This document shows positions 3,521 through 26,100 of a stretch of DNA of 64,000 nt, piece after piece. The first letter of the stretch is position 1. The number at the start of each line of letters is the position of its first letter. Both the position numbers and the translations under genes were made by a program. This stretch comes from an uncultured bacterium (GTDB taxonomy: Bacteria; Bacteroidota; Ignavibacteria; Kapaibacteriales; UBA4661), in the NCBI GenBank assembly GCA_937899715.1, contig CALCNX010000089.1, positions 9,213 to 73,212 on the forward strand, in the 5' to 3' direction. The notes below the pieces were generated by a model, which made no database searches, was not told the origin of the DNA, and saw only the letters and a list, made by a program, of their open reading frames with translations.

Positions 3521-4058
3521 TGGTAATTTGCGGTTGTGGTGTGTGGAATTACGACGGAATTTACACAAGCCTCAGGCTTTGGCAAAAAGAATTCTATGTT
3601 GGGAATTATTTATTACATCAATCTACTTTTAACACTACTCGAATCAAATCTCTGCACGGAAGGCGCAGAGTAGCCCAATCATAATTATTAGGATTTTCGC
3701 AAACAAATCGGAGCGCGAGCGAAAACCCGCATATATACTGACTTTATCTTACTAACCGAACTTTTGTTCGGACCCCAAAAGAGCATTTTTGCAAAAGTCA
3801 TAATTATATCTTGCATAGTCGAATTTGAACTATACTTTCCTTGCAATACTGTACTCAGATGCTGCAACCACTTCCTCTTTGCGTACTTTTACGTGCTTTT
3901 TTTTATTGATATGCGTAGATGTTCTTGCCTCCTACGTGCGTAATAATCAGGTGTTTGACCGTATAGCATTGACCTCTCCAATATCGTAATTTTGTATCAG
4001 AAATTAACACTTGCCCATCCATCAAGTATCTTTTCATTTCTTGAGACATCATTGAACT

Positions 4059-4675: not shown

Positions 4676-5176
4676 ATGAAAACCTTACAACAGCTTGTTC
4701 GCCAGGCACAATCCCATACAGTAGGCAGCACTGAATTTCATCGTGCGGTGGTACAAAACATTATTGAGCAAATAGGCTCTACGCGAGCAAGTATCTGGTA
4801 TTTTAATGAATATCAAGACAGTTTGACCTGCGAGGTCTTATTCGACAGGCGCACCGAAGAATATTCCTCCAGTTTTTCCTTATATCTGGAAGACTATCCT
4901 CAGTATTTTGGTGCAATGGTACATGGCGACACTATTTGTGCGCCTGATGCGCTGCGTCACCTACTTACGTCCTGCTTTGCAGAGATGTACTTCGACCCAC
5001 TTGAAATCAAATCCTTGCTTGATGTCTCAATAATCATCAAAGGGAAGGTCGTCGGCGTAATTTGTTGCGAGCATTGCGAACACCGCAAAGACTGGACAGG
5101 CAGTGAGATTGAATACTTAAATACCGTTGCTTCTATGCTCTCGCTGACCGTACCGTTGCTCATGGTGGAAGCGTAA
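4676..5176 (+). CDS. Stand-alone GAF-domain protein.
   Basis: A 166-aa protein whose secondary-structure pattern and motifs fit a GAF fold (…IWYFNEYQDSLTCEVLFD…VSIIIKGKVVGVICCEH). It lies 39 nt downstream of the pseudo-receiver on the same strand. Confidence 0.6.
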   Translation: MKTLQQLVRQAQSHTVGSTEFHRAVVQNIIEQIGSTRASIWYFNEYQDSLTCEVLFDRRTEEYSSSFSLYLEDYPQYFGAMVHGDTICAPDALRHLLTSCFAEMYFDPLEIKSLLDVSIIIKGKVVGVICCEHCEHRKDWTGSEIEYLNTVASMLSLTVPLLMVEA

Positions 5177-5298
5177 GCGCACAAAGCAAACATTAGGCTT
5201 GAAAAATGTCGTGGAAGAGTTTGTGAATCGTGTTTAGAATCATTAGATTACACACAGCGCGGCAATTACCAACATACTCTTGCATACATACCCGTACA

Positions 5299-6492
5299 AT
5301 GAAGCAGATTCTTTGCATAGAAAGCACAGACGGCAGCGATAAACAAGATACACTTCTTGCTATGATTTCTACTATTCTGCCCTCATTTACAACGGAAAGC
5401 GTTTTACGTGGAAGTGATGCTGTCGCCATGCTACAAGAACAGAAGCAAGGGCTTGTCATTGTGGATATGCGCCATTGTACCGTTGAGGACTTGGTCTCGC
5501 TTGATAGTCTTCTTCGATTTCGCCCACAAATGGCATTGATAGCTGTGCTTCCCAAAGCGGATTACGCACTTGCTAAAGCCACTCTCGAAATGGGAGCAGA
5601 TGATATAATTACGCATCCTCTGAGCGAATCGGATATTAGAACAACAATTCTCCGCCAGTACGAGCGCATACAGGCTATTCAGCAAGAGGTACAACGGACG
5701 GTGCATGAGGTGGCTTTACGAATTTCGTATGTTCTACCGCACGAATTTCGTACTCCCCTCAATGGATTGATAGGTTTTATCAATCTTCTGCGGCAGGACG
5801 CGCTGCAAGAAGACGAAAAGCCAATGGCATATCGCTACTTGGAATCCTCCATCAATCGCTTGCACCAAACGGCTGAAAAATTCTTGCTCTACGCCGAATT
5901 GGAGCAGCTTAATCTTGATGAACAGGCGCTTGAAGTGCCATTGTCGTCGTCAGGGCAATTTGCCACATATGGAATGACGAGCCTCACCACAGAAATAGCC
6001 CACGATACCCTTGCAGCATTTGACCGCCTGAGTGATATTACGTTTCACCTAGACGACAGCGAGTATGCGGTACAGATGCGGGCGCAGCACGTCCGATTTG
6101 TGATTGCAGAACTTATCACCAATGCTTGCAAGTTTTCTGAGCCACGTACACCGATTGCACTAACAATGAAGCATGATGCCGAATTTTGCACCATCACCAT
6201 CCGTGACAATGGCTATGGATTCGAGTCCGGCGACCTTCAACGTATTGGCGCATTCAATCAATTTGGTCGTGAACGATTTGAACAGCAGGGCGTGGGATTT
6301 GGCTTGCCAATTGTACAGCAGATTTTGTCGCTTTATGGTGGCAAATTAGACATTCAAAGCAAACGCAATGAAGGTACATCCGTTACGATTGTTGTACCGC
6401 TTGCAGCACTTTCCCAGACTGAAGAGGGGTATGCTTCGGTGCAGTATATCACAATGCACCCATTGCAAGGGCATGATTGGAGCAGTAATTAG
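5299..6492 (+). CDS. Hybrid two-component protein: N-terminal receiver domain fused to a HisKA/HATPase_c histidine kinase.
   Basis: Receiver with LVIVDMRH phospho-Asp context; H-box LPHEFRTPLNGLIGF; N box ELITNACKFS; G boxes DNGYGF and GVGFGLPIVQQIL. ATG at 5299 (MKQILCIEST); the ORF-track start at 5230 is upstream. Confidence 0.75.
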   Translation: MKQILCIESTDGSDKQDTLLAMISTILPSFTTESVLRGSDAVAMLQEQKQGLVIVDMRHCTVEDLVSLDSLLRFRPQMALIAVLPKADYALAKATLEMGADDIITHPLSESDIRTTILRQYERIQAIQQEVQRTVHEVALRISYVLPHEFRTPLNGLIGFINLLRQDALQEDEKPMAYRYLESSINRLHQTAEKFLLYAELEQLNLDEQALEVPLSSSGQFATYGMTSLTTEIAHDTLAAFDRLSDITFHLDDSEYAVQMRAQHVRFVIAELITNACKFSEPRTPIALTMKHDAEFCTITIRDNGYGFESGDLQRIGAFNQFGRERFEQQGVGFGLPIVQQILSLYGGKLDIQSKRNEGTSVTIVVPLAALSQTEEGYASVQYITMHPLQGHDWSSN

Positions 6493-12306: not shown

Positions 12307-12521
12307 GCCTCCAATCGCCACATTGAACCGACGGAATATCTTCGCTGATACATTCTGTGCGGTTTGTCGTGCATTCTTCTGCTTTTTTATTCTATTTTTT
12401 AGCAAGCAATCCCAAGCCCGGAGCGCAAGCATAGTTCTGCATACTGCGAAGTACGCTGAACACTTGTTTGTACTTCAAATTTCTTCCTAATTTTTCTAAA
12501 CTTTTATATTCGAGGTTATAT

Positions 12522-12911
12522 ATGAAACCCTGCTGTGAAACAAGCGCACCAAAGCGCAGATTCAGCACAAATGCTCTTTTGAGCATTGTTGCTATAATGA
12601 TTGTCGGTATTGTTCTCGTAAACGCGACCGCGTTCGGAGCGCCCAAAAAAGAGACCGTGAAGGTCTGGGGCAACTGCGGTATGTGCAAAAAGACAATTGA
12701 AAAATCGCTCAAAGGCGTAAACGGTCTTGAATCGGCATCGTGGGACAAAACCACCAAGATTCTTACTGTTAGCTACGACGATAGCAAAATTGCCATGAAG
12801 CAAATTGAGGAAAAAGTCGCTGCCGCCGGTTACGACACACAAAATGTAAAAGCAAACGACGGTGCATACAGCAACCTAGCAAAATGCTGCAAGTACGACC
12901 GCAAGAAATAA
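12522..12911 (+). CDS. Membrane-anchored heavy-metal-associated (HMA) domain protein.
   Basis: N-terminal transmembrane segment, then a ferredoxin-like HMA fold carrying a variant metal-binding motif GNCGMCKKTIEKSL in place of the canonical GMTCxxC. ATG at 12522. Confidence 0.65.
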   Translation: MKPCCETSAPKRRFSTNALLSIVAIMIVGIVLVNATAFGAPKKETVKVWGNCGMCKKTIEKSLKGVNGLESASWDKTTKILTVSYDDSKIAMKQIEEKVAAAGYDTQNVKANDGAYSNLAKCCKYDRKK

Positions 12912-12925
12912 TCTTAGGCACTTGG

Positions 12926-12988
12926 GGAGTGCGGAATGGATTGCACAAAGCTCGTAAATCTACCATACGCAAATAATTTCCGCACTCC
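12926..12988. repeat. Copper-island palindromic intergenic element, copy A (GGAGTGCGGAA …41 nt… TTCCGCACTCC).
   Basis: Perfect 11-bp terminal inverted repeat. It starts 15 nt after the stop of the HMA gene (12911) and ends 32 nt before the PepSY ATG (13021). Confidence 0.7.
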
Positions 12989-13020
12989 ATGATTTGACTA
13001 TTTATTCAAGAGAAAAAGCT

Positions 13021-13773
13021 ATGAAATTTCGCACTATATGGATTCGCACAACGCACCGCTACATGGGTGTTATTGTTGGTATTCAGTTTATCTTCTGGAC
13101 GGCAAGCGGTTTGTTTTTCGCATGGAACGATATTGATGCTGTCCATGGAGATACCCTAATGGCGCATCAACACCCTTCATTTATATTCGACACGGTGAGT
13201 GTTGTTCCCGTCGCAACTGCGGTGGAGGCGCTTAAAAGTAATGTTACGAATGTCTAAAGCGTTCAATCTCTCCAGCTCCGTGAATTCTTGCACGAACCAA
13301 TGTATGAGCTTCGGTATCTACGTGACGAAAAAGAGCATTTCGCCTTGGTGAATGCTCATACAGGCGTATTCCACAAGCCGCTTACTGCTGAAGAAGCTAG
13401 CGCTGTTGCCGTAGCTGACTTTACGCCCCATGCGGCGGTGCAAAGCGTGGAATATATTACGGAAGTGGAATCCTCATCGGAATACCGCGACAAACCACTT
13501 CCTGCCTATCGCGTTACCTTCGACCATGAAAGCGCTACGCATATCTATGTTTCTGCCGAGCGCGGCACTGTTACTTCCCGGCGAAATGGTCGGTGGCGTA
13601 CTTGGGATTTTCTTTGGGCATTTCACATCCTCGACTTTCAAACCCGAGACAATATTCACAATTGGCTTTTGCGGGGTATGTCAGCACTGGCGGTAATGAC
13701 CGTATTGAGTGGTTTTCTCTTGTGGGGTTTTACTTCGTCCACACTCCGCAAACGGTTTGCCGCAAAATCGTAA
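13021..13773 (+). pseudogene. PepSY-associated transmembrane-helix protein interrupted by an in-frame TAA at 13255-13257.
   Basis: ORFs 12994..13257 and 13288..13773 lie in the same frame and are separated only by a TAA. The translation across the stop stays protein-like (…VTNV*SVQSLQLREFLHEPMYELRYLRDEK…). There is an N-terminal TM (GVIVGIQFIFWTASGLFFAW) and a C-terminal TM (LRGMSALAVMTVLSGFLLWGF), matching the small PepSY_TM architecture. Confidence 0.45.
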
Positions 13774-13875
13774 TAGACAACACACAATCTCCCGAGAGAA
13801 GTTCGGGTACACTAAATAGACAGCCGCCGTGGAGAACCTCCATTTGTACTCCAAATCTACTCACTTCATAACACT

Positions 13876-14454
13876 ATGCTGAAAACATTGATTCTTCTCG
13901 TATTGGCAGCATTGTCCTTGAGCACAAAGACACTGCAAGCCGACAGCACCGCCGCTAATGTTGAGCACGCACTACCCGATAGCACACAGATTACAAAAGC
14001 GACAAAAAGTCCGCGTATGACAATAAAGGGTACCATTGGTAAAGCCACCATCACCATAGACTACGGCTCGCCCAGGGTTCGTGGGCGCGTGATTTGGGGT
14101 GGTCTAATTGCCTATGGTACGGTCTGGGCAACGGGAGCGCATCACGCAACCTCCATTGCCTTCAGTCGTGCTGCAGTTATCGGAGGGAAAATCGTTAAAG
14201 CAGGCAAGTATGCGCTTTTTACCATTCCCGATAAAAACGAATGGACAGTGATTATCAACAAAAACTACGACCAACACTTAGCAGATGATTACGACGAAAA
14301 ACTGGACATTATTCGTCTGAAAGTAATGCCCAAATCAGTTGAAACAATTCAGGAAGAACTAACATTCGGTATTGTCGCTTCCGATGCAAGCGAAGGACAT
14401 ATCAGTTTTGCATGGGATAAACTCATCTGGACGCTTCCTCTGAAATCTCTTTAA
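13876..14454 (+). CDS. Secreted DUF2911-like protein.
   Basis: Signal peptide MLKTLILLVLAALSLSTKTLQA. Motifs VIWGGLIAYGTVWATGAHHATSIAF and AGKYALFTIPDKNEWTVIINKN match what I recall of DUF2911. Confidence 0.5.
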   Translation: MLKTLILLVLAALSLSTKTLQADSTAANVEHALPDSTQITKATKSPRMTIKGTIGKATITIDYGSPRVRGRVIWGGLIAYGTVWATGAHHATSIAFSRAAVIGGKIVKAGKYALFTIPDKNEWTVIINKNYDQHLADDYDEKLDIIRLKVMPKSVETIQEELTFGIVASDASEGHISFAWDKLIWTLPLKSL

Positions 14455-14473
14455 GCGAAGTGAGAAACAGATT

Positions 14474-15040
14474 ATGCAAACAACACTCCACATCAAAAAC
14501 ATGGTCTGCGCTCGCTGTATCCGCACGGTGCATGACGAGTTGACAGCACTTGGCTTGCAGGTCAAAAGCGTTACGCTGGGCGAAGCCACTGTTGAAGGTG
14601 AGGCGCACCTAGACGAGATTCGCCCACGACTGGAGGCACAAGGATTTGAATTGTTAGAAAGCAATACCGCCAAACTTGTGGAGCATATCAAAACGGCAGT
14701 GATTCATTTAGTGCGTTCTGATACTTTGGAAGCAATGACAGAGCGGGTGTCAGAATATCTTGCGCGAGTGATTGGTAAAGATTACGAATATCTGAGCAGT
14801 CTATTTTCATCGGTGGAAGCCATGACGATTGAACGGTATATTATTCTCCAAAAAATTGAACGCGTCAAAGAACTTCTGGTGTATGATGAATTGACCTTGA
14901 GCGAAATAGCGTATCGCTTGGGATACAGCAGCACAGCACACGTATCGCGGCAATTCAAAGAGGTTGTTGGTATGCCGCCCAGTGCTTTCAAATCGCTGAA
15001 GGACAAGCCCCGCACCGCTCTTGACCGCATCGGGCAATGA
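14474..15040 (+). CDS. Metal-responsive AraC-family transcriptional regulator with an N-terminal HMA-like metal-binding domain.
   Basis: N-terminal HIKNMVCARCIRTV (MxCxxC-type) ferredoxin-like domain, plus a C-terminal AraC helix-turn-helix (LSEIAYRLGYSSTAHVSRQFKEVVGMPPSAFK). It sits immediately upstream of copZ/copA. Confidence 0.75.
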   Translation: MQTTLHIKNMVCARCIRTVHDELTALGLQVKSVTLGEATVEGEAHLDEIRPRLEAQGFELLESNTAKLVEHIKTAVIHLVRSDTLEAMTERVSEYLARVIGKDYEYLSSLFSSVEAMTIERYIILQKIERVKELLVYDELTLSEIAYRLGYSSTAHVSRQFKEVVGMPPSAFKSLKDKPRTALDRIGQ

Positions 15041-15046
15041 AAAAAC

Positions 15047-15121
15047 CGAGCGTGTGGAAAAATTCGCTCCGAAAGAAAGTATTCAAGACCAAAGGAAGAA
15101 TCAACTTTTCGTTCACACTCC
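15047..15121. repeat. Possible degenerate sixth copy of the same element (right arm GTTCACACTCC, left arm GAGCGTGTGGAA).
   Basis: The right arm matches copy B's GTTCGCACTCC at 10 of 11 positions. It sits between the HMA-AraC regulator stop (15040) and copZ (15232). The left arm is only weakly similar. Confidence 0.35.
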
Positions 15122-15231
15122 GGCAAAGAATTCTGCAACTCTTTTCGGTTTATCTGTAACGTTGGAAGCAGCATCACATGGTATTTTTGTAGTGTAAGTT
15201 TTTTCATACACTATCATCTGGAGAAATAATC

Positions 15232-15471
15232 ATGACACACACATTTGCTATTCCCGGTATGACCTGCTCAGGCTGTGAGCGCACTGTTACTCGTATTTTG
15301 AGCAGTATTGACGGCATTACCGATGTTAAAACAGCACTACAACCATATTCCCACGTGGAAATTACCATGACGCGGCATCTTGAGACCGATGCTCTCAACG
15401 CCGAACTTGGCAAGGTTGCCAAAGGGAAATATGTGCTTTTGTCTGACACCGCAAACGGGGGAGCATTATGA
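15232..15471 (+). CDS. copZ: Copper chaperone CopZ (single HMA domain).
   Basis: [14 protein letters not shown] motif; 79 aa; its stop overlaps the copA start. Confidence 0.8.
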
Positions 15472-17759
15472 ACGCCGATCAGTCAGACCCGGTGATTTCT
15501 ACGGTAACACTGGACATTAGCGGTATGAGCTGCGCTTCTTGTGCTGCGATGGTAGAAGATGCGCTCGCTACCACGCCGGGTGTGCAAAAAGCAAGCGTCA
15601 ATCTTGCATCTGAGAAAGCAACCGTATCCTTTGCACCGAAGCAGGTAAACGTGGAAATGCTCAAAACATCTGTTGAAAGCGCAGGCTACGGGGCAAGCGA
15701 AATAAAACACGATGGTAATCGTGCAGCACAAGCCGAAGCCACCGAGACGCGCAAACTCGCCGAGTACAACGCACTCAAACGCCGCTTCGCCATTGCTGCT
15801 CTGCTTGCAGCAGTAATTATGCCCCTTTCAATGACGATGCTGTTTCCAAGCGTGGAGCATTTTTTTCACCAGACTATAGGAATGCAGGCATTAAACTACA
15901 TTTTGCTTGTGCTCACGCTGCCTGTGTTGCTTTATAGCGGGCGCGAATACTATGTTTCGGCATACAACACGTTTTTGCATCGTGCGGCAAATATGGACAC
16001 CTTGATTGCCGTCGGTACGGGAGCAGCATTTGTGTACAGCGTCGTGGCGACGGTTGTGCCTGCACTTTTTGAGCAACACGGTATGAAAGCGGAGGTGTAT
16101 TTCGACACCACAGCAACAATTATAGCACTTGTTCTGCTCGGCAAAGTTTTGGAAACGCGGGCAAAAGGTCAAACGTCTGCTGCTATCAAAAAACTCATCG
16201 GTTTGCAAGCAAAGACCGCACGAATCCTCGTGCATGGTCAGGAACAAGAAATACCCATTGAGAGCGTCGTCGTGGGCAATATCGTCGTGGTACGTCCGGG
16301 CGAAAAAATCGCCACTGACGGCGAAATTACAGAAGGTTCGTCATCGGTTGATGAATCCATGCTCACGGGCGAAAGTTTGCCAATCGAAAAGACACAAGGT
16401 TCATCAGTGTTTGGCGGCACGGTCAATAAGACAGGACGCTTTACCTTTCGCGCAACGAAGGTCGGCAGCGATACCGCACTTGCACAAATCGTGCGGCTTG
16501 TGGAAGAAGCACAAGGCTCGAAAGCCCCTATTCAACGCCTCGCAGACAAGATTAGCGGCATATTTGTTCCGGCAGTTGTGGTAATTTCCATTCTCACGTT
16601 TGTTGCATGGTTCAATCTCATGCCCGCCGATGTGCGGTTGCCTTTTGCGCTCGTGAATTTTGTTGCAGTGCTTATCATTGCTTGTCCCTGTGCCTTGGGT
16701 CTTGCTACGCCAACGGCGATTATGGTTGGCACAGGCAAAGGCGCGGAACACGGTATTCTGATTCGCAATGCCGAAAGTTTGGAGAAGGCGCACCAAATCT
16801 CAGCAATTCTGCTTGATAAAACGGGTACCATCACGAAGGGCGAACCGACGGTAACAGACTTTGTGATTCTCGGTGAACTGGCACTGCGAGGGAAAACGAT
16901 ACAGCTTGCCGCTTCGCTCGAAAGCAATTCCGAGCATCCTCTTGCGGCGGCGATTGTGAACTGCGGCACACGCGAAGGCGTACAGTTATTGCCCGTAAGC
17001 CATTTTATGGCAGTAGAAGGCAAAGGTGCAACGGGTGTGGTGGACGGGAAACGCATCGCTATCGGTAATACAAAACTTATTGCTGACGAAAACATCATAC
17101 TTACCCAAGAGGCTCTGCAAACCGCAGAGCGCCTTATTGCCAATGCACGAACAGCTATGTTTGTGGCGATTGAGGGACAAATTCAAGCGGTAATAGCTGT
17201 GGCAGATGTAGTGCGCGGAACATCGCGCGAGGCAGTAGCGGCATTGCAAGCGCGTGGAATCGAGGTAGTGATGCTCACGGGCGACAACCAAAAAACGGCA
17301 GAGCATATTGCCTCTGAGGTAGGAATCAAGCGGGTCTTTGCGGATGTTCTTCCGCAGGACAAAGCAAATGCAGTAAAGCAACTGCAAGCAGAAGGCAAGA
17401 TTGTTGCAATGGTCGGCGATGGCATCAACGACGCTCCGGCACTGGCTCAAGCAGACGTGGGCATAGCCATTGGCGCAGGAACGGACGTGGCAATGGAAGC
17501 AGCGAGTATAACGCTGATGCGGAGCGATTTGCGCGATGTGGTAAAAGCCATTGACCTTTCGCGCCGCACGATGGCGAACATCAAGCAAAATCTCTTTTTC
17601 GCATTTGTCTATAACGTGCTTGGGATTCCACTTGCGGCAGGGCTGTTCTATCCCTTCACAGATTGGCTTTTAAGTCCGATGATAGCGGCGGCGGCGATGG
17701 CAATGAGTTCGGTATCGGTGCTGACCAACGCGCTCCGCCTCAAAACGATAAAACTATAG
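15468..17759 (+). CDS. copA: Copper-translocating P1B-type ATPase.
   Basis: N-terminal HMA ([14 protein letters not shown]), transmembrane CPC motif ([13 protein letters not shown]), phosphorylation site DKTGTIT, hinge [10 protein letters not shown] nucleotide motif ([10 protein letters not shown]). Confidence 0.9.
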
Positions 17760-17830
17760 GAGTGCGAACGGAAGTTCGCCCAATCAACCAAAAGACAAAT
17801 TTTATTCTGCGAACTTCTTGTTCGCACTCC
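17759..17830. repeat. Copper-island palindromic element, copy B (GGAGTGCGAACGGAAGTTCGC … GCGAACTTCTTGTTCGCACTCC).
   Basis: It begins at the last base of the copA stop codon and ends 14 nt before the cupredoxin ATG. The outer GGAGT/ACTCC arms enclose two GCGAAC-N4/5-GTTCGC sub-hairpins. Confidence 0.7.
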
Positions 17831-17844
17831 AATTCTCTATAATT

Positions 17845-18222
17845 ATGGACACAGCACAAATTCTCGTAACGCTTGCTGGCACTGGACTCGTGGTGTTTGT
17901 GGTGTGGTATTTCTTTTTCGGCAAACGCGAAACAAAGGCTGCAATGCTCACAGCAAGCGGCGTTCAAGAAATCTCTGTTCTAGTCAAAGGCAGCTACACG
18001 CCTGAGATTATCGAAGTCGTCAAAAACAAACCCGTGCGTCTCAAATTCTACCGCGACGAAACCTCAAGTTGCTCGGAAGAGCTGGTTTTCGGCGAGTTCA
18101 ATCTCCGACGCGAGCTACCTGCTTTTGAAACGACGGTGATAGACATTACACCCACGAAAATAGGCACATTCGAGTTTACGTGTGGGATGAATATGCTCCG
18201 TGGCAAACTTGTAGTCAGATAA
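17845..18222 (+). CDS. Membrane-anchored cupredoxin-like (EfeO-N/Cup-type) small copper-binding protein.
   Basis: N-terminal transmembrane helix, then a beta-sandwich with C-terminal EFTCGMNMLRGKLVV. ATG at 17845; the track start at 17818 is a TTG inside the upstream repeat element. Confidence 0.5.
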   Translation: MDTAQILVTLAGTGLVVFVVWYFFFGKRETKAAMLTASGVQEISVLVKGSYTPEIIEVVKNKPVRLKFYRDETSSCSEELVFGEFNLRRELPAFETTVIDITPTKIGTFEFTCGMNMLRGKLVVR

Positions 18223-18229
18223 CAAACAC

Positions 18230-18293
18230 GGAGTGCGGACGGAAGTTCCGCAAAAAAAATAGAACTTAGTATGCGAACTTCCGTTCGCTCTCC
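18230..18293. repeat. Copper-island palindromic element, copy C (GGAGTGCGGACGGAAGTTCCGC … GCGAACTTCCGTTCGCTCTCC).
   Basis: It starts 8 nt after the cupredoxin stop and ends 13 nt before the multicopper-oxidase ATG. Same architecture as copy B. Confidence 0.7.
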
Positions 18294-18306
18294 ATTAGGA
18301 ATAACC

Positions 18307-19836
18307 ATGAAAACCAATCGGCGAACATTTTTGCAGCTTGCGGGCGGCACTGCGTTTGCACTCGCAGGTGGAAATGCCTTTCAAAGCTGCATGAACCCAA
18401 TGAATTCCGGTAATATGACCGAAGTAACAATTGGTGGCGAAACAGGTCTGCCGTTCCGCCAACCTTCGGTCTGGAATGGTTCTGGTATCAGCGCAAGCAC
18501 TACGACGCTCGACGTGCAAGGCGCTCCCGTTCAAGCATGGGCAATGGGCAGCTCGGTACTCGCGCCAACTATTCGCGTGCCGAAAGGTGCAGCGTTTTCA
18601 GTGCAACTTCAAAATCAGCTTGCAATGGAGACCAATATCCACTGGCACGGCTTGACTGTTCCCTCAACCATGGACGGGCATCCGAAAGACGTTGTCAAAA
18701 CGGGCGGTACATTTACTTATGCTTTCCCCGTTTTTGACCGTGCTGGAACGTACTGGTATCATCCGCACCCGCATAAAAATACGGCACGACAGACCTATAT
18801 GGGCATGGCGGGATTGTTCATCGTTGACGACCCCGCAGAAGCCTCTCTCAATCTGCCTTCGGGCGAATTTGACGTACCGCTCGTGCTGCAAGACAAACGC
18901 TTTCAGCAAGTGAAACGCTTCGTTTATGCACCTTCGATGGCAGACGTAATGACGGGTTATTTGGGCGATACAATGTTCGTAAACGGTGCTCCGGTGCCAT
19001 ATCTGGACGTAGAGAATGGTCTCTACCGCTTTCGTGTGCTGAACGCAGCAACGGCACGGGTAATGAAATTGGGCTTTGAAAACGGCATGGTGTTTCACGT
19101 TATTGGTACAGACGGGGGATTGATTGACGCGCCACAACAGGTAACAAGCGTAATGCTCTCGCCGGGCGAGCGTGTTGAGATTCTCGTGAACTTTGCGAGC
19201 ATAGCGCTTGGTGGCTCGGCGTTGTTTCAAACGCAGGAATTTACCTTGCCCGCTGCACCAGCATCACAGAGCGGGATGAATGGAATGACGATGAGCGCGT
19301 ACAAGCAAGGAATGGCAATGCCTATCATGCGCTTCAATGTGAAACGACAAACTACGCGGCAAACGACCATTCCACAGGCTCTCACACCGATTGAGCGCAT
19401 AAGCGCAGCACAAGCGACGAAAACACGGACGTTCACACTGAATATGGAAATGGTGTCGCTTGAAGGTGGTGCAACGCCTCATGGTGGCACAAATGGTGGC
19501 GAAATGATGCGCCACACGATAAATGGTAAACTCTTCGCAATGGAACGCATTGATGAGAAAATCACTTTTGGCACAACCGAAATCTGGGAATTCCAGAACA
19601 AAGGCGATGAGCCACACCCAATGCACGTTCACGGAACCCAGTTTCAAGTTTTGTCGCGCTCCGGTGGTGCGCTCGCGCCAGTGGATATGGGGTGGAAAGA
19701 CACTGTGCTGGTGAATCCCAATGAGAGTGCGCGCGTCATTCTGCGCTTCGACAAGTATCGAGGTATATACTTGGTGCATTGCCACAACCTTGAACACGAA
19801 GACGATGGTATGATGCAAAATTTTGAAGTCGTATAG
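18307..19836 (+). CDS. Tat-exported multicopper oxidase (CueO/CopA-like).
   Basis: Tat signal MKTNRRTFLQLAGGTAFALAGG. Copper ligand motifs HWHG, WYHPHPH, HPMHVHG, HCHNLEHEDDGMM. Confidence 0.85.
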   Translation: MKTNRRTFLQLAGGTAFALAGGNAFQSCMNPMNSGNMTEVTIGGETGLPFRQPSVWNGSGISASTTTLDVQGAPVQAWAMGSSVLAPTIRVPKGAAFSVQLQNQLAMETNIHWHGLTVPSTMDGHPKDVVKTGGTFTYAFPVFDRAGTYWYHPHPHKNTARQTYMGMAGLFIVDDPAEASLNLPSGEFDVPLVLQDKRFQQVKRFVYAPSMADVMTGYLGDTMFVNGAPVPYLDVENGLYRFRVLNAATARVMKLGFENGMVFHVIGTDGGLIDAPQQVTSVMLSPGERVEILVNFASIALGGSALFQTQEFTLPAAPASQSGMNGMTMSAYKQGMAMPIMRFNVKRQTTRQTTIPQALTPIERISAAQATKTRTFTLNMEMVSLEGGATPHGGTNGGEMMRHTINGKLFAMERIDEKITFGTTEIWEFQNKGDEPHPMHVHGTQFQVLSRSGGALAPVDMGWKDTVLVNPNESARVILRFDKYRGIYLVHCHNLEHEDDGMMQNFEVV

Positions 19837-19903
19837 GAGTGCGGAATGTACACCGCTTCTTCAAGTCAAACTAAAATTTTATGCAGAATAAATTCTGCAC
19901 TCC
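19836..19903. repeat. Copper-island palindromic element, copy D (GGAGTGCGGAAT …44 nt… ATTCTGCACTCC).
   Basis: It starts at the last base of the multicopper-oxidase stop and ends 18 nt before the cusA ATG. The terminal inverted repeat matches 11 of 12. Confidence 0.7.
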
Positions 19904-19921
19904 AATAAGATTCCTACCGCC

Positions 19922-22900
19922 ATGATTGAAAATATCATCGAATGGAGCGCGAAGAACCGTTTTATCGTTCTTTTAGCGTACTGCATCATTATCGGCATTG
20001 GCGTTTTCGCCGTCGCACGGCTGCCTGTGGATGCTATTCCCGACCTTTCGGAAAACCAAGTAATTGTCTTTACGGAATGGATGGGACGCTCACCCGAAGT
20101 GGTCGAAAATCAAGTAACCTACCCGATTGTGTCGAATCTGCAAGGACTTCCGCAGGTCAAAGCAGTACGCGCTTCCTCCATGTTCGGAATGTCGTTTGTG
20201 TTCGTCATTTTTGAGGACAACACGGATTTGTATTTTTCGCGGAACCGTGTGCTGGAGCGCTTGAACGTCATTCAAGCAAAACTGCCCGCAGGCGTTACGC
20301 CCACGCTTGGACCTGACGGCACGGGAGTTGGTCACGTGTTCTGGTACACGCTCGAAAGCAAAAAACCTCAAAGTAAAAGCTCTCAAAGCAATAGCTCAAC
20401 AAGCAAGGATGGAAAGCACTTCTACGATGCCGGAACACTCCGCGCTGTGCAGGATTGGTACGTGCGCTATAAACTCTCAGCGGTGGAAGGAGTGGCGGAA
20501 GTGGCAAGCATCGGCGGTTTTGTCAGGCAATATCAAGTGGATATTGACCCGATGAAACTTCGCGCTTACAACGTGAGCGTAGCGGAAGTCGTGAACGCGC
20601 TCCAACGCAGTAACAATGAGGTTGGCGGGAAACTACTTGAAATCAGCAGCGCAGAGTATTTTGTGCGCGGTCAGGGCTACATTCATTCCAAAGAAGACAT
20701 CGAAAATACTGTCGTCCGCACGGCATCGAATGGCGTTCCCTTGATGATACAAAACATTGCCACCGTGCAGCTTGGCGGCGACATCAGGCGCGGCACGATG
20801 GACAGAGACGGCAAAGGTGAGGCAGTTGGCGGAATTATCGTTATGCGGAGCGGCGAAAACGCTCGTGCGGTGATTGAGCGCGTGAAGCAAAAAATTACGG
20901 AGATTTCGCCCGGACTGCCCGAAGGCGTGGAAATATACGCCTCCTACGACCGCTCGACGTTGATTGAAGCGGCGGTAGGGACGCTTGAACGCGCTTTAGT
21001 TGAAGCCGCCATCGTGGTTTCGATTATCGTCGGAATTTTTCTTCTGCATTGGCGGAGTATTATCCGCATTATCATTGAATTGCCGATTGCTGTGCTGATG
21101 TCGTTTATTCTGATGTATGCTTTGGGTATCACGTCCAACATTATGAGTCTGGGCGGGATTATCCTTGCTGTGGGCGTGATTGTGGATTCGTCCATTGTTC
21201 TGGTGGAAAATTCGTATCGCAATATTGCCCACGCCATTGAACAAAAAGGACACCTCACGCCGGATGAGTACAAGCGGATTGCGATTGATTCCGCGAAACA
21301 AGTCGGTCGAGCTATTTTCTTTAGCGACCTCATTATTCTTGTGTCGTTTCTGCCCGTGTTTTTGCTTACCGGGCAAGAAGGCAAGCTCTTCAAGCCGCTT
21401 GCATTCACGAAAAGTTTCGCGCTTTTGTCGTCCGCAATCGTCGTTGTAACGCTTATTCCTGTTTTGATGACAATGCTTATGCGTGGCAATTTCAAGCCTG
21501 AAGATGCCAATGTACTCACGCGCTTTTTCAAATGCCTCTACGAGCCGATTATTCATTGGGTGCTGAAGTGGCGCAAAACCACAATGGCAATCAACATTCT
21601 CGCACTTCTCGCCACGATTCCGATGATAATGAACACGGGTTCGGAATTCATGCCACCGCTTGATGAAGGTTCGATTTTGTATATGCCCGTAACGCTGCCG
21701 AATGCTTCCACACCGGAAGTAAACCGCATTTTACAGGAACAAGACCGCATTATTAAAACCGTGCCGGAAGTCGCTCATGTTCTGGGCAAGGCAGGACGCG
21801 CCGAAACTGCAACCGACAACGCGCCGGTGAGCATGATTGAGACAATTATTCTGCTCAAGCCCAAAGAAGAGTGGCGGGCTGGGCTTCGCAAAAAAGACAT
21901 TATAGCCGAACTGGATAAAAAACTGCAAATCCCGGGCGTTCGCAACGGCTGGACGCAACCGATTATCAACCGCATCAATATGCTTTCCACAGGCGTTCGT
22001 ACTGACATTGGCTTCAAAATTTACGGTGATAATTTGGACACGCTGGAACACTACGCCATCAAAGCCGAAGAAATCTTAAAAACGGTTCCGGGAGCAGCGG
22101 ATGTGGTGGCAGACCGTGCACAAAACGGATATTATCTGGACATCAGTATCAAGCGAGAAGCCGCAGCACGATACGGCGTAAAGGTCGCCGATGTGCAGGA
22201 CATTATCGAAACCGCTATTGGCGGACAAAATTTGAGCGTTATTCTGGATGGTCGTATGCGCTTCCCGCTCCGAATGCGCTTCGCACGGGATTCCCGCGAA
22301 AGTATTGATGAATTGGAGCGTTTAATTGTACCTATTCCGGCACGAGGTTCTGTGGAAGCAAGTTTCGGTGTAGGCAGTAGTGCAACTGGTGGTATGAGCA
22401 GCGGCAGTGTGGCGGCGAGTGGAGGTATGGGTGGAATGAATAACTCTGCCACTCCCGTTAAAGAAGCAAGCAACAATGCGGGTGCTGATGCAGGAAGTTC
22501 CTCGTCGCTCTTCTCAAGCGGTCAGTCAGGCGGGCAAACTTTTGTTCCCCTTTTCTATCTCGCTGATATTCGTGTCGTGAATGGTCCTTCGATGATAAAC
22601 AGCGAACACGGTTCACTCAGGGCTGTTGTGTTCATGAATGCTCGTGGGCGTGATATGGGCGGCGTAGTGGAGGATGCACAGCGTACCATCGCGGAAAAAC
22701 TGAAACTGCCGACGGGGTATTCGGTGGAATGGAGCGGGCAGTACGAGCATAAAATTCGCGCCGACCGCACTATCAAAATCATCATGCCCGTTGTGTTTCT
22801 CATCATTTTCGTTTTGCTGTATTTCACGCTGAAAGATTACGTCGAGGCAGGAGTAGTGATGCTTTCCGTGCCATTTGCGCTCATTGGCGGAATGTACATG

Positions 22901-23347
22901 ATTTACGCATTAGGCTATAATTTTTCGATTGCTGTGTGGGTAGGATTTATCGCGCTCTACGGCGTGGCGGTGGAAACAGGTGTGGTGATGGTGGTTTATC
23001 TGCACGAGGCATTGGACAAACGCTTGCTGGCTGTACAGCGCGGTGAGCGTGGTGCGCTCACGAACACCGATATTTACAAGGCAGCAGTAGAAGGCTCCGT
23101 ATTGCGCTTGCGCCCCAAACTGATGACGGTGCTGACGGCAATGATTGGGCTTGTACCCGTGATGTGGGCGACAGGAACAGGTGCGGACGTAATGAAGCCG
23201 CTCACTGCCCCGATGATTGGTGGTCTGCTTACGTCTGCTGTTCACGTGCTGGTCGTAACGCCGGTACTGTTTGTGATGATGAAAGAGCGGGCTTTGAAAC
23301 GTGGAACACTCGAAGTCTCGAAAATGGCAGGATGGATGGGGCATTGA
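19922..23347 (+). CDS. cusA: Heavy-metal efflux RND transporter, CusA/CzcA (HME) family, with a ~90-aa Gly/Ser/Met-rich low-complexity insertion.
   Basis: 12-TM RND architecture and typical HME-RND segments (…AIPDLSENQVIV…, …GGIILAVGVIVDSSIVLVEN…). Insertion …GSSATGGMSSGSVAASGGMGGMNNSATPVKEASNNAGADAGSSSSLFSSGQSGGQTF… near residue 820. Confidence 0.9.
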   Translation: MIENIIEWSAKNRFIVLLAYCIIIGIGVFAVARLPVDAIPDLSENQVIVFTEWMGRSPEVVENQVTYPIVSNLQGLPQVKAVRASSMFGMSFVFVIFEDNTDLYFSRNRVLERLNVIQAKLPAGVTPTLGPDGTGVGHVFWYTLESKKPQSKSSQSNSSTSKDGKHFYDAGTLRAVQDWYVRYKLSAVEGVAEVASIGGFVRQYQVDIDPMKLRAYNVSVAEVVNALQRSNNEVGGKLLEISSAEYFVRGQGYIHSKEDIENTVVRTASNGVPLMIQNIATVQLGGDIRRGTMDRDGKGEAVGGIIVMRSGENARAVIERVKQKITEISPGLPEGVEIYASYDRSTLIEAAVGTLERALVEAAIVVSIIVGIFLLHWRSIIRIIIELPIAVLMSFILMYALGITSNIMSLGGIILAVGVIVDSSIVLVENSYRNIAHAIEQKGHLTPDEYKRIAIDSAKQVGRAIFFSDLIILVSFLPVFLLTGQEGKLFKPLAFTKSFALLSSAIVVVTLIPVLMTMLMRGNFKPEDANVLTRFFKCLYEPIIHWVLKWRKTTMAINILALLATIPMIMNTGSEFMPPLDEGSILYMPVTLPNASTPEVNRILQEQDRIIKTVPEVAHVLGKAGRAETATDNAPVSMIETIILLKPKEEWRAGLRKKDIIAELDKKLQIPGVRNGWTQPIINRINMLSTGVRTDIGFKIYGDNLDTLEHYAIKAEEILKTVPGAADVVADRAQNGYYLDISIKREAAARYGVKVADVQDIIETAIGGQNLSVILDGRMRFPLRMRFARDSRESIDELERLIVPIPARGSVEASFGVGSSATGGMSSGSVAASGGMGGMNNSATPVKEASNNAGADAGSSSSLFSSGQSGGQTFVPLFYLADIRVVNGPSMINSEHGSLRAVVFMNARGRDMGGVVEDAQRTIAEKLKLPTGYSVEWSGQYEHKIRADRTIKIIMPVVFLIIFVLLYFTLKDYVEAGVVMLSVPFALIGGMYMIYALGYNFSIAVWVGFIALYGVAVETGVVMVVYLHEALDKRLLAVQRGERGALTNTDIYKAAVEGSVLRLRPKLMTVLTAMIGLVPVMWATGTGADVMKPLTAPMIGGLLTSAVHVLVVTPVLFVMMKERALKRGTLEVSKMAGWMGH

Positions 23348-23395
23348 TTTTTTTGAATTGACTCTATTTCACCAAAATCTACTGTACAAAAATGT

Positions 23396-24721
23396 ATGCG
23401 ACTAATAATCATTGCTCTTTTACCAACGCTTCTTTGTGGAGTTTCACTCCCTGCGCAGCCGCTTGATTCCTTGCTTGCCGAAGCTACACGAAACAACGCA
23501 CAGCTTCGCGCTTACGGTTTCGCTGTGCAAGCCGCCGAACATCGCATAGATGCTGCTGGCGCACTGCCACCTCCGCAAGCAGGTGTATCGGTGGAGCAAG
23601 TGCCGGTCGGCAATTTTAACATTGTGAACAGCGCACTATCCAACAACTTCTACGCTTCGCAAATGTTCATGCTGGGCGGAAAACTTGACGCAATGCAAGA
23701 CATGGAGCGGGCGCGAGTAAAAAACGAACACGAGCGCACTCAAGAATTTGCAGCTAAACTTCGCGCCGAAATTACGACCGCCTACACGATGCTTTGGCGC
23801 ATTGACCGCCAGCGCGAGGTGTACGCCAGCACTGCCACCCTTCTTTCGCGCTCCATCGAAGTCGCATCGGCACAAGTGCAAGCCGCACGACTTCCCTACA
23901 CAGAAGTAATGCGCTTGGAAGCAGAGAAATCCCTTGCGCTTCTGAAACACACAACGCTTGGTAACGAACGTAAATCTGCGATTGCTATGCTGAATGCGCT
24001 ACTGGGGCGTACAAATACGGCTTCGGTGAATATTACGCCTATTCTCGCAGAACGACGATTTATCGAAGAACAAGTTCGTATCAATCTTAAACGACTTGTC
24101 GTCTCCAATCCCACGCTACGACGTATGACAAGCATGATTGCCATGACTGAAGCGGAACGGATTTCGAGCGAAAAAGAGTCAATTCCTGACGTGATGCTAC
24201 AAGGGATGATTATGCGAATGCCTCAAGGAATGGCGCTTACGGCGAATTCACCTATTTTCACTGGTGCGCTTGAATCACCATTTGCCTACGTTGTTCGTGC
24301 GCCGAATGCCCCACCTGACTTTATGTATAGCCTCATGGCACAAATTACGTTGCCCTTTGCACCATGGTCGTCGGCAAAATATACCGCCAAAACACAAGAA
24401 CTCGCAGCCATAGCCACCTCGCAAACACTGGAGCGCGAGAATATGGAGCGGATGCTCTCGGCACAAGTAGAAGAACAAGTACAAAAAATGCAGACTGCCG
24501 CAGAAACCGCAGACATCCTCGAAAAAACGGTCATTCCGCTTTACGAACGCACGTTGGATGCCCAATTAACAATGCTCTCCACCGCACAAGCAAGCATAAA
24601 CACACTGCTCGACACTGAGCGAATGCTATTGATGAAGCGCGATGACCTGCTCATGGCACGTGAGCAATACCACCTTGCGCTCGCTCAGCTAGAATACTTG
24701 CTTGGCGAGCCGTTGCGATGA
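23396..24721 (+). CDS. cusC: Outer-membrane efflux factor (TolC/CusC-like).
   Basis: Signal peptide and two-repeat OEP architecture with coiled-coil periplasmic segments. Located between cusA and cusB. Confidence 0.75.
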   Translation: MRLIIIALLPTLLCGVSLPAQPLDSLLAEATRNNAQLRAYGFAVQAAEHRIDAAGALPPPQAGVSVEQVPVGNFNIVNSALSNNFYASQMFMLGGKLDAMQDMERARVKNEHERTQEFAAKLRAEITTAYTMLWRIDRQREVYASTATLLSRSIEVASAQVQAARLPYTEVMRLEAEKSLALLKHTTLGNERKSAIAMLNALLGRTNTASVNITPILAERRFIEEQVRINLKRLVVSNPTLRRMTSMIAMTEAERISSEKESIPDVMLQGMIMRMPQGMALTANSPIFTGALESPFAYVVRAPNAPPDFMYSLMAQITLPFAPWSSAKYTAKTQELAAIATSQTLERENMERMLSAQVEEQVQKMQTAAETADILEKTVIPLYERTLDAQLTMLSTAQASINTLLDTERMLLMKRDDLLMAREQYHLALAQLEYLLGEPLR

Positions 24722-24730
24722 TTTTTTATC

Positions 24731-24794
24731 GGATTGCGGAATTTTAATTCCGCCTTTTTCAACAATTTCAATCGCGGAATAAATTCCGCACTTC
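24731..24794. repeat. Copper-island palindromic element, copy E (GGATTGCGGAATTTTAATTCCGC … GCGGAATAAATTCCGCACTTC).
   Basis: Two perfect GCGGAAT-N2/4-ATTCCGC palindromes flanked by degenerate GGAtTG / CACTtC arms. It lies between the cusC stop (24721) and the cusB ATG (24805). Confidence 0.6.
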
Positions 24795-24804
24795 ATGCAC
24801 GATT

Positions 24805-26100
24805 ATGAACTACCTCATTCTTGCCATTCTTTTTATCCTGACGGCGTGTTCGCAAAAACAGAACGCGCAAAATGGACACGCAGGACACAATGATTCTACC
24901 GCTCTGCAAGCCGCAAAGCCCGTCAAATATATCTGTCCGATGCACCCCAAAGTAACGTCCGACAAAGAAGGTATTTGTCCAATTTGTCAGATGGACTTAG
25001 TGCCGGAAAACAGCCCTGAAGCGAAGGAATACGCGGAGGACGAGCATTCTCACGAGCATAGTTCTCACGAGAACAGTTCTCATACGGAACATACGTTGGG
25101 CGAGCTTGCCATAACAGGGCAAAGCCGTGTACTGGCGGATGTGCAAACAGCAACCGTTCAGAGCGAGTCTATTCATCGCACCGTCAATGTTGTTGGCACA
25201 TTGGACTTTGCCGAACAGAATCGCCGCAGTATCACTGCCCGCGTGAGTGGACGGATTGAAAAATTATACGTGAACCAGTCTGGGATGACCATTCGTAAGG
25301 GGCAGGCACTTTTTGATGTGTACAGCCCCGAACTCCTACAAGCACAAAACGAGTATATCATTGCCTTCAAAAACCAGCAATTAGCAAGCCTGAGCGGTGG
25401 CACAAGCACGGCAATTCTCAGAAAATTGAAAGAGCGTTTGATGATTTGGGGGCTGACCGAAGAGCAAGTTCAGGCACTAGAGCGCTCGCAGGATGCACCA
25501 CTCACAACCACTCTTCATGCGCCTTTCGGCGGGACGGTGATTGAGAAAAAAGTTGTGGAAGGAACGTTTGTGAGCATCGGCGCACCACTCTTTGAAGTTG
25601 CCGACCTTTCTACGCTGTGGAATATAGCAGGGATTTATGAAACAGACGTGGCGGCGGTGAAGATTGGTCAACAGGTTGCTCTGAGGACGCAAACCTATCC
25701 GGGCGAGACCTTCAAAGGGCGCATTGCCTTTATCTATCCCGTCGTGAACGCGGAATCGCGCACGGTGAAAGTCCGTATTGAAACGCCCAACCCTCACAAA
25801 AGGCTACGTCCGGCGATGTACACCGAAACAACGTTTATGCTCAATCAAGGCAAAGGCTTGACTGTTCCCAATGATGCGGTGTTGGTAACAGGCAAACAAT
25901 CTATTGTTTGGGTGCAGGCACAGGTCGAAGCAAACAAATTCGAGGCGCGGCGCGTAACGCTGGGAGCAAAATTTGACGGTAAAATACAAATTCTTTCCGG
26001 TGTATCGGCAGGAGAAAAAGTGGTGGCACGTGGTGGATTTTTGCTGGATTCGGAGCGGCAGTTGCGCGGTGGAACTGGCAGCGAAGGACATCAGCATTAA
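24805..26100 (+). CDS. cusB: RND efflux membrane-fusion (periplasmic adaptor) protein CusB-like, with an N-terminal YxCPMHP heavy-metal-binding domain and a His-rich stretch.
   Basis: Lipobox LILAILFILTACSQ; HMBD-type motif YICPMHPKVTSDKEGICPICQMDL; His-rich EDEHSHEHSSHENSSHTEH; HlyD/biotin-lipoyl-like barrel segments. Confidence 0.85.
   Translation: MNYLILAILFILTACSQKQNAQNGHAGHNDSTALQAAKPVKYICPMHPKVTSDKEGICPICQMDLVPENSPEAKEYAEDEHSHEHSSHENSSHTEHTLGELAITGQSRVLADVQTATVQSESIHRTVNVVGTLDFAEQNRRSITARVSGRIEKLYVNQSGMTIRKGQALFDVYSPELLQAQNEYIIAFKNQQLASLSGGTSTAILRKLKERLMIWGLTEEQVQALERSQDAPLTTTLHAPFGGTVIEKKVVEGTFVSIGAPLFEVADLSTLWNIAGIYETDVAAVKIGQQVALRTQTYPGETFKGRIAFIYPVVNAESRTVKVRIETPNPHKRLRPAMYTETTFMLNQGKGLTVPNDAVLVTGKQSIVWVQAQVEANKFEARRVTLGAKFDGKIQILSGVSAGEKVVARGGFLLDSERQLRGGTGSEGHQH

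Follow-up and report, generated by a model that had tools for sequence, protein, structure and literature searches.

Palindromic elements in a copper efflux operon of a Kapaibacteriales bacterium are very probably REPINs of an operon-resident REP-associated transposase

REPINs, inverted doublets of repetitive extragenic palindromes (REPs), are non-autonomous elements of REP-associated tyrosine transposases (RAYTs), HUH/Y1 enzymes of the IS200/IS605 superfamily. REP/REPIN-RAYT systems are well described, and the occurrence of REPs between cistrons is a classical observation. The canonical tag of the described RAYT-associated REPs is GT[AG]G (PMC3733652, PMC6006769), and in Pseudomonas fluorescens SBW25 it is the doublet that replicates as a unit (PMC3116915, PMC5581495). 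Here we analysed 64 kb of DNA (hereafter the window) from an uncultured bacterium of the order Kapaibacteriales, phylum Bacteroidota, in which five palindromic elements sit in the gaps between the genes of a metal-resistance operon (the copper island). We are highly confident that these elements are REPINs of a REPIN-RAYT system, locally enriched around an operon-resident transposase. This reading is carried by the architecture of the repeat, by a cognate RAYT flanked by the same repeats in close relatives, by the conserved catalytic motifs of this enzyme, by the generic distribution of the repeat and by the deletion of the RAYT gene in the strain to which the window belongs.

The five elements, which had been pointed out in a sequence-only reading of the window, were confirmed at positions 12926-12988, 17759-17830, 18230-18293, 19836-19903 and 24731-24794. 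Their termini agree with GGAGTGCGGAA and TTCCGCACTCC with 0-2 mismatches. When up to one mismatch was allowed, the 11-mer GGAGTGCGGAA or its complement matched nine times in the 64 kb, and all nine matches fell at the ends of the five elements. At up to two mismatches there were 35 matches, versus 17.2 +/- 4.4 in shuffled sequences. An inverted-repeat finder recovered three of the five as pairs of terminal arms (I1, I11 and I19). As DNA the elements folded with z-scores of -3.2 to -7.7 relative to dinucleotide shuffles, and as RNA with z-scores of -4.0 to -7.9 (hairpins of -19 to -33 kcal/mol), with 0 of 200 shuffles as good in either case. Folding as RNA, one of the proposed checks, set all five elements apart from shuffles and spoke against a possible sixth copy at 15047-15121. 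This candidate folded like shuffled sequence (z = -0.7 and -0.2), had no covariance-model match at E <= 10 and was rejected.

The placement of the elements between stop and start codons was essentially as had been described. Their 5' edges lie -1 to 14 nt past the upstream stop codon and their 3' edges 10-32 nt before the next ATG (0-15 and 13-32 nt in the earlier account), and two of them, those starting at 17759 and 19836, share the G of the upstream stop TAG. No run of T is present in any of the five 3' flanks (ATGATTTG, AATTCTCT, ATTAGGAA, AATAAGAT and ATGCACGA), which excludes Rho-independent terminators and agrees with the view that these are not ordinary terminators. No target-site motif or duplication was evident in the flanks. 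In the whole window, no Rfam family scored at or above its gathering threshold, and a permissive Rfam search of the island returned chance-level matches only (snoZ103 and a plant-virus element).

All five elements, 63-72 nt long, are inverted doublets of a REP. Each consists of two inverted copies of a unit of about 21 nt, in which an unpaired 5' tag, GGAGT, is directly followed by a hairpin whose stem measures 5-7 bp and whose loop is usually 4 nt long. This description fits all ten element halves, and a covariance model of the half-site recovered 10 of 10. Two subtypes of the unit were found, GCGGAA-TTTA-TTCCGC and GCGRAC-GGAA-GTYCGC, and the stems of the different copies display paired changes (GCGGAC/GTCCGC, GCGAAC/GTTCGC, GCAGAA/TTCTGC, GCGAAA/TTTCGC, ACGGAC/GTCCGT and CCGAAC/GTTCGG). 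When doublets in orthologous islands were defined by the two 5-nt tags alone, a perfect stem of 6-7 bp stood right after the tag in 37 of 52 distinct halves, versus 0.7% in random sequence. The proposed test for covariation was answered in part: a gap-free alignment of 17 distinct units displayed double-sided changes at four of six stem pairs and no G-U pairs, in a sample preselected by a scanner that requires perfect stems, so that its 100% pairing is circular and only the covariation pattern is informative.

The five copies, none of which is assigned a strand, are preserved to different degrees. REPIN 1 (12926-12988), in the gap between an HMA gene and a small open reading frame (ORF), has perfect 11-nt termini and decayed inner REP hairpins (covariance-model halves of 14.4 and 12.2 bits; fold z = -4.4 as DNA and -4.7 as RNA). 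REPIN 2 (17759-17830) fills the gap between CopA and cupredoxin, and its first G completes the CopA stop TAG. Its halves read GGAGT-GCGAAC-GGAA-GTTCGC and GGAGT-GCGAAC-AAGAA-GTTCGC (33.2 and 21.8 bits; z = -7.7 as DNA and -7.9 as RNA). REPIN 3 (18230-18293), between cupredoxin and multicopper oxidase, belongs to the GGAA-loop subtype (24.7 and 29.6 bits; z = -6.9 and -7.2, respectively). In REPIN 4 (19836-19903), between multicopper oxidase and CusA, the first G completes the oxidase stop TAG, the left hairpin is decayed, and the right half, GGAGT-GCAGAA-TTTA-TTCTGC, carries a compensatory change from G:C to A:T (16.2 and 31.8 bits; z = -3.2 and -4.0). REPIN 5 (24731-24794), between the gene of the outer-membrane factor (OEP) and that of CusB, is of the TTTA-loop subtype with one mismatch per tag (19.0 and 31.4 bits; z = -4.4 and -4.9), and it is also present in three other contigs of this analysis (L262, L263 and L002).

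The cognate transposase was found in relatives of the window's strain. A look-up of the cupredoxin protein in public assemblies led to contig L002 (GCA_044227435.1), from the same species, with 97-99% DNA identity to the window. This contig has an extra gene of 179 aa (L002:8207-8746) between those for the RND pump and OEP. Its product matches the NCBIfam family of REP-associated tyrosine transposases, NF047646, at 97.5 bits (curated cut-off 80) and Pfam PF01797 (Y1_Tnp); its best solved relative is TnpA-REP of Escherichia coli (PDB 4ER8), and neither the HUH motif nor the catalytic tyrosine varies among 12 homologues, all of which identifies a Y1 HUH transposase with RAYT motifs. Upstream of the gene stand a single REP and a doublet and downstream a doublet, all of GGAGTGCG... 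units. REP/REPIN-RAYT systems are defined by precisely this, a RAYT with the same REPs on either side (PMC3116915, PMC5581495, PMC3733652). This REPtron arrangement also occurs in L060, L129/L130, L131 and L132-L139, and is absent from the window itself.

In L002 and these four other Kapaibacterium-like lineages the RAYT gene of the island encodes 177-179 aa. All five share the order CusA - doublet - RAYT - doublet - OEP - doublet - CusB, and the RAYTs of the four occupy the same island position as that of L002. In L060, a representative genome annotated as Candidatus Kapaibacterium sp., RAYT is 72% and CusA 90% identical; across the five lineages, identities amount to 66-77% for RAYT, with that of L002 as the reference, and 85-90% for CusA at one syntenic position. 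A doublet ends 10-12 nt before the start codon of RAYT, and the OEP start overlaps the RAYT stop codon. Doublets also occupy the CopA-proximal gaps in the five lineages; a lack of conservation in homologous islands had been named as a sign of a chance palindrome. The OEP-CusB gap holds the TTTA-loop subtype in the window, L060 and L131 and the GGAA-loop subtype in L129. Such differences between lineages in the subtype of a given gap suggest turnover rather than simple inheritance of one insertion. RAYT itself was seen at one conserved position in each island, and it appears not to copy itself. The RAYTs of SBW25 likewise keep their genomic position across related species, suggestive of vertical inheritance.

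More distant RAYT homologues (60-64% identity) were found in Desulfonema ishimotonii and in an Anaerolineae metagenome-assembled genome, in unrelated gene neighbourhoods. They too are flanked by GGAGT-tagged hairpins, with stems of their own (GCAGGG/CCCTGC and CCAAAGC/GCTTTGG). The GGAGT tag is therefore common to the island copies, the metagenome copies described below and the REPs beside distant homologues, and can be regarded as the conserved tag of this RAYT clade. The unpaired GT[AG]G at the hairpin foot that marks the GTAG superfamily is replaced here by GGAGT, and these REPs fall outside both the GTAG and the CGTC superfamilies as defined in PMC3733652. Judging from the sequences, GGAGT would play in this clade the role that GTAG plays for E. 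coli REPs. The island RAYT reads W-Y where E. coli TnpA-REP has W94-Q95, residues described within the region that contacts the guide sequence (PMC6006769), a substitution that would be consistent with the different tag.

The closest parallel is the REP/BIME (bacterial interspersed mosaic element) family of E. coli with its transposase TnpA-REP (YafM; Bertels group 2, Quentin subclass 2.2). Both systems display a hairpin preceded by an unpaired 5' tag, extragenic and often intercistronic sites, inverted pairs and an HUH/Y1 gene flanked by the repeats. They differ in the tag (GTAG versus GGAGT), in the short stem and 4-nt loop of the REPs described here, in the host phylum (Bacteroidota, not Gammaproteobacteria) and in the position of the RAYT as a cistron of a metal-efflux operon. 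The REPIN-RAYT systems of SBW25 (PMC3116915, PMC5581495) are alike in their long-hairpin doublets and in a RAYT flanked by REPINs. Their populations comprise tens to hundreds of dispersed copies, whereas the copies sampled here are clustered. Quentin subclasses 2.4 and 2.6, rich in Bacteroidetes (PMC6006769), share the host phylum, a non-GTAG flanking structure and the existence of extra genomic copies. Members of subclass 2.6 stand between secondary structures of an atypical kind and have a mean length of 179 aa (PMC6006769), the length of the L002 RAYT. Compared by signature motifs, the RAYT described here (NHYH / W-Y / YLLNNP) is unlike both 2.4 (NH[IFV]H, WQ, YIxNNP) and 2.6 (NH[LIV]H, WQ, YIH[QN]NP). 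The ends of IS200/IS605 elements (IS608, ISDra2) also resemble the REPs in their subterminal hairpins, in a guide sequence 5' of the hairpin foot and in the lack of target-site duplication, and recognition by a Y1 HUH enzyme on single-stranded DNA would, by analogy, be a further likeness. In contrast to those elements, no transposase gene lies between the two hairpins of a doublet, which is short (63-72 nt) and non-coding. What is new here is the GGAGT tag, a RAYT signature that matches no single tabulated subclass (PMC6006769), and a RAYT that is conserved inside a metal-efflux operon filled with its own REPINs, in Bacteroidota. Our literature search found no paper linking REPs or RAYTs to copper operons, and a search for the motif string returned unrelated primer sequences only.

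The window itself has no RAYT gene. A tblastn search for RAYT in the 64 kb found none, the best match (E = 0.15, at 309-443) lying inside a CNNM/CorC gene. Positions 8096-8808 of L002 are replaced in the window by 23346-23444. In the CusA-OEP gap, a local alignment to the 3' end of the L002 RAYT (CAAGATGCTGACTTCTAAAAAT) identified a probable remnant of its last ~22 nt (23373..23393, + strand). A probable decayed REP doublet follows (23394..23450, + strand), as judged from alignments to L002, L191 and L129. These alignments indicate that the window's strain deleted the RAYT gene and keeps the doublets together with a scar at 23373-23450. The RAYT-less allele is also found in L262 and L263, contigs from two other samples, hence strains of one species differ in carrying RAYT. 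Since the transposase gene is missing from this strain, its link to the palindromes could not be seen in the sequence-only reading. Unless a second RAYT is encoded elsewhere in the genome, the copies in the window's strain are probably immobile. In contig L191 (ERZ1066127 NODE-101; 4844-6370, 3200-3450), an Omp85/DUF5982 outer-membrane protein gene stands in place of RAYT, whose last codons remain. The same island lacks the multicopper oxidase gene and has the OEP-CusB doublet with its flanks in tandem (~123 bp x 2).

The doublet 3' of RAYT lies inside a coding sequence. In the relatives, this doublet lies in the OEP reading frame (L002:8733-8830; L129:9635-9730; L191:4700-4802, - strand), which opens at an ATG overlapping the RAYT stop, and it is translated as a signal-peptide-like N-terminus, ...SAKFISLFLLIFCGI[HN]SALRAQ|PLDSLL. 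The intact doublet of L002, translated as ...SAKFISPLFLLLLCGINSALR, is homologous to window positions 23394-23450. There, the OEP start codon (23396) and the codons of the signal peptide (MRLIIIALLPTLLCGVSL; MRLIIIALLPTLLCGVSLPAQP), at 23396-23450, align with the decayed doublet, which thus supplies the N-terminus MLTSKNRSAKFISPLFLLLLCGINSALRSQ, a putative signal peptide. The OEP N-terminus thus appears to be a mobile repeat that has been exapted as coding sequence. A single REP unit, GCGGAATGAATTCCGCACTCC, was also observed inside cusA, in a variable loop rich in Gly and Ser (L129:8108-8128 and L060:1508-1528). Its translation is GGMNSALP; in the window, at about 22440-22460, it has decayed to NSATP.

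The REP family is not specific to the copper island, but it is strongly enriched there. The claim that no full-length copy exists elsewhere in the 64 kb held approximately, the exception being a diverged doublet of 67 nt (3710..3776, no strand assigned). This copy lies where a histidine-kinase gene (2549-3568, - strand) and a response-regulator gene (4059-4637, + strand) diverge, in the gap that separates them. Its right half, GGGGT-CCGAAC-AAAA-GTTCGG (3756-3776, - strand), scored 21.8 bits (E = 0.004), and its decayed left half (3710-3730, + strand) 8.4 bits; folded as 3711-3777, the doublet has z = -3.0 as DNA and -2.3 as RNA. A strict structural scanner missed this copy, which the covariance model later detected. 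Neighbouring contigs extend the window leftwards by ~8.7 kb and rightwards by 0.7 kb, and a further decayed doublet of the same species lies ~5 kb to the left, downstream of a SpoU methylase gene. In total, six doublets were seen in the 64-kb window, five of them in the island, and one in the 7-8.7 kb extension. This amounts to five copies in the 14.7 kb of the island versus two decayed copies in ~57 kb outside, a roughly tenfold difference in density. Clustering in the island has P ~0.005 (binomial, our own arithmetic on the counts), or 6.5e-4 for five of five before the outside copies were counted.

The repeat is widespread beyond this species. The exact TTTA-loop unit was found at at least 120 loci in JGI (Joint Genome Institute) metagenomes, with GC contents of 0.32-0.64. 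Nearly all of these are inverted doublets, most of them spaced 50-90 nt. Among the matches listed, a single one of 120 metagenome loci (L191) is a copper island and 119 are non-copper contexts, with flanking genes annotated for few loci only, within and beyond the metagenome set. In related genomes, doublets adjoin an aconitase-family gene (L012) and lie upstream of an M16 peptidase gene (L111). Another adjoins an alpha/beta-hydrolase gene in L159, a contig which, like L183, comes from the same assembly as L191 with similar coverage. The suggestion of an island-specific family, and with it a confinement of the motif to metal-resistance loci, was thus not upheld; only the enrichment in the island stands.

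Several further repeats were observed in the course of this survey. L183 has a doublet of this REP (4349-4413) between the pump and adaptor genes of a further RND operon (RND, HlyD-type adaptor, OEP), which is unrelated to the first. In a metagenome organism of GC 0.60, same-orientation REP arrays of 10-12 units with a period of ~30 nt (L158:5080-5401 and L221:3099-3471) represent a higher-order arrangement different from the inverted doublets. A scan of representative genomes with the doublet pattern was dominated by unrelated-looking inverted 7-mer arrays of high-GC phyla (Acidobacteriota, Planctomycetota, Gemmatimonadota, Verrucomicrobiota and Chloroflexota). These match the pattern with a different architecture, (GGAGTGC/GGAATGC)n ... 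(GCATTCC/GCACTCC)n, at loci L010, L011, L015, L016, L030, L071, L080 and many others, and their 7-mer is the REP tag extended by the beginning of the stem. Beside the decayed doublet to the left of the window, L264:1888-1990 (~5.2 kb left of window position 1) holds a direct tandem repeat of 45 bp (TATACCTACACTTGGCTTACAGTTCGTATTTTGATACACGCAGA x 2), in a 580-bp gap between an amidohydrolase gene and the SpoU methylase gene. Within the window, a weak REP-like match inside a histidine-kinase-like ORF (5719-5756), which overlaps ACGAATTTCGTA in two direct copies, scored 16.2 bits (E = 0.09) and is probably due to chance.

The paradigms for a mechanism are E. coli TnpA-REP and IS608 (PMC3479197, PMC6006769). 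By analogy with these, RAYT would bind the REP hairpin on single-stranded DNA, the 5' tag would position cleavage beside the hairpin, and the enzyme would thereby excise doublets or copy them into new sites. Surviving copies would mark sites where insertion is harmless, namely intergenic gaps. As a cistron of the operon, RAYT would be made whenever the operon is transcribed and may act preferentially nearby, so that the enrichment in the island would follow from the proximity of the RAYT gene and from co-transcription with it.

Some points weigh against this reading. Cleavage and mobility in this clade would be expected only by extension from E. coli TnpA-REP and IS608, and in the genome of the window, which lacks a RAYT gene, activity of the elements remains putative. 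The tag, GGAGT, departs from the canonical GT[AG]G. Finally, known REPIN populations are usually dispersed, and here a single 14.7-kb operon holds five of the seven copies seen in ~72 kb, a pattern that could instead have arisen by selection for some function in this operon.

Such a function might be served by RNA. The elements may be kept mainly as hairpins in the polycistronic copper mRNA, with their REP/RAYT origin being secondary. The relative amounts of CopA, cupredoxin, oxidase, pump and adaptor would then be governed by the shielding of upstream segments against 3' exonucleases, or by attenuation of translation or transcription. REPs of E. coli stabilise upstream mRNA, and those within 15 nt of a stop codon reportedly lower expression of the gene upstream. 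The elements fit this picture in their position, in co-directional gaps directly past stop codons, in their very stable RNA hairpins (z down to -7.9), and in that the same gaps are filled in five lineages though the REP subtype of a gap differs. On the other hand, the same sequence occurs in more than 100 unrelated contexts among the matches listed, copies are also found in a divergent promoter gap and downstream of a convergent gene, and the inner hairpins of copies 1 and 4 are decayed. The stems change only from one Watson-Crick pair to another, without G-U, which fits constraint at the level of DNA better, albeit as a weak point drawn from a biased sample. We therefore regard RNA function as the main reason for the presence of these elements as rather unlikely. 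As a secondary effect, doublets that lie within a polycistronic mRNA so close to stop codons may, by analogy, also affect mRNA decay or translation of the upstream gene.

A more elaborate version, to which we likewise assign a low probability, is that of a domesticated pair of transposase and repeat, bound to a single stress operon. The RAYT and its REPINs would, in Kapaibacterium-like Bacteroidota, be resident in a Cu/Ag efflux operon, and the RAYT would be induced by copper and would keep renewing the doublets in the operon gaps. The host would have co-opted the doublets as RNA hairpins that tune the stoichiometry of the efflux proteins, and one of them to provide OEP with its start codon and signal peptide, with GGAGT as a new guide tag.

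It had also been proposed that the elements are arrays of operator half-sites (TGCGGAA/TTCCGCA) for a metal-responsive regulator, such as the adjacent AraC-type protein with an HMA domain. Palindromic sequences in a metal island, beside the gene of an AraC-family regulator, do invite this idea, but the sites lie between cistrons and not at promoters, and an identical REP occurs at at least 119 loci without copper genes, with GC contents of 0.32-0.64, and flanks RAYT genes in several phyla. Moreover, the stems vary freely with pairing kept, which is the signature of a hairpin and not of a duplex read by a protein, and we consider operators highly improbable. The same holds for other recombination or mobile classes, integron attC sites or miniature inverted-repeat transposable elements of DDE transposases: imperfect inverted repeats of 63-72 nt right after co-directional stops superficially resemble a cassette array, but Pfam scans found no integrase among the island genes, the attC core sites RYYYAAC/GTTRRRY are not matched by the termini GGAGTGCGGAA/TTCCGCACTCC, the flanks display no target-site duplications, the genes form a conserved operon whose order is kept across lineages, and the associated enzyme is a Y1 HUH transposase. 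Two of the earlier suggestions (REP/BIME-like hairpins, and a miniature inverted-repeat element of which these would be remnants) together came close to what we propose, which is that these are REP doublets of a RAYT.

The locus that hosts these REPINs (12468..26100, + strand) is co-directional, as established by Pfam scans and by the gene calls in an identical contig (L001). It encodes an HMA protein, a small ORF, PepSY, DUF2911, an AraC-type regulator, a small HMA protein, the CopA P-type ATPase, cupredoxin, multicopper oxidase, a CusA-like RND pump, OEP and a CusB-like adaptor, and genes for an argD-like aminotransferase and queC border the metal-resistance set. The small HMA-domain gene (15232-15471; 79 aa), called in L001, lies directly upstream of copA and overlaps its start. 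It fell below the threshold of the ORF listing, which covered ORFs of at least 80 aa, and as it lies in the AraC-CopA 'gap', this gap is smaller than it appears. The proposed comparison of island and flank composition gave no signal of horizontal acquisition as judged by GC (0.490 in the island and 0.491 outside), hence nothing marks the island as recently imported.

For annotation, the REPINs explain the odd palindromes of this operon, the TTG 'starts' inside them, which had rightly been taken as spurious, and the gene that is missing from the window's strain; they also caution against taking such elements for regulator sites. These findings add a class of REPs with a non-canonical GGAGT tag, whose RAYT clade spans Bacteroidota, Desulfobacterota and Chloroflexota. 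They also describe a rare arrangement, in which a RAYT is a conserved cistron of a metal-efflux operon and the gaps of this operon are filled with its REPINs. A REP that is translated as a signal peptide would exemplify the exaptation of a mobile element into coding sequence. Finally, strains with RAYT (L002) and without it (the window, L262 and L263) offer a natural comparison of whether REPINs decay after the loss of their transposase.

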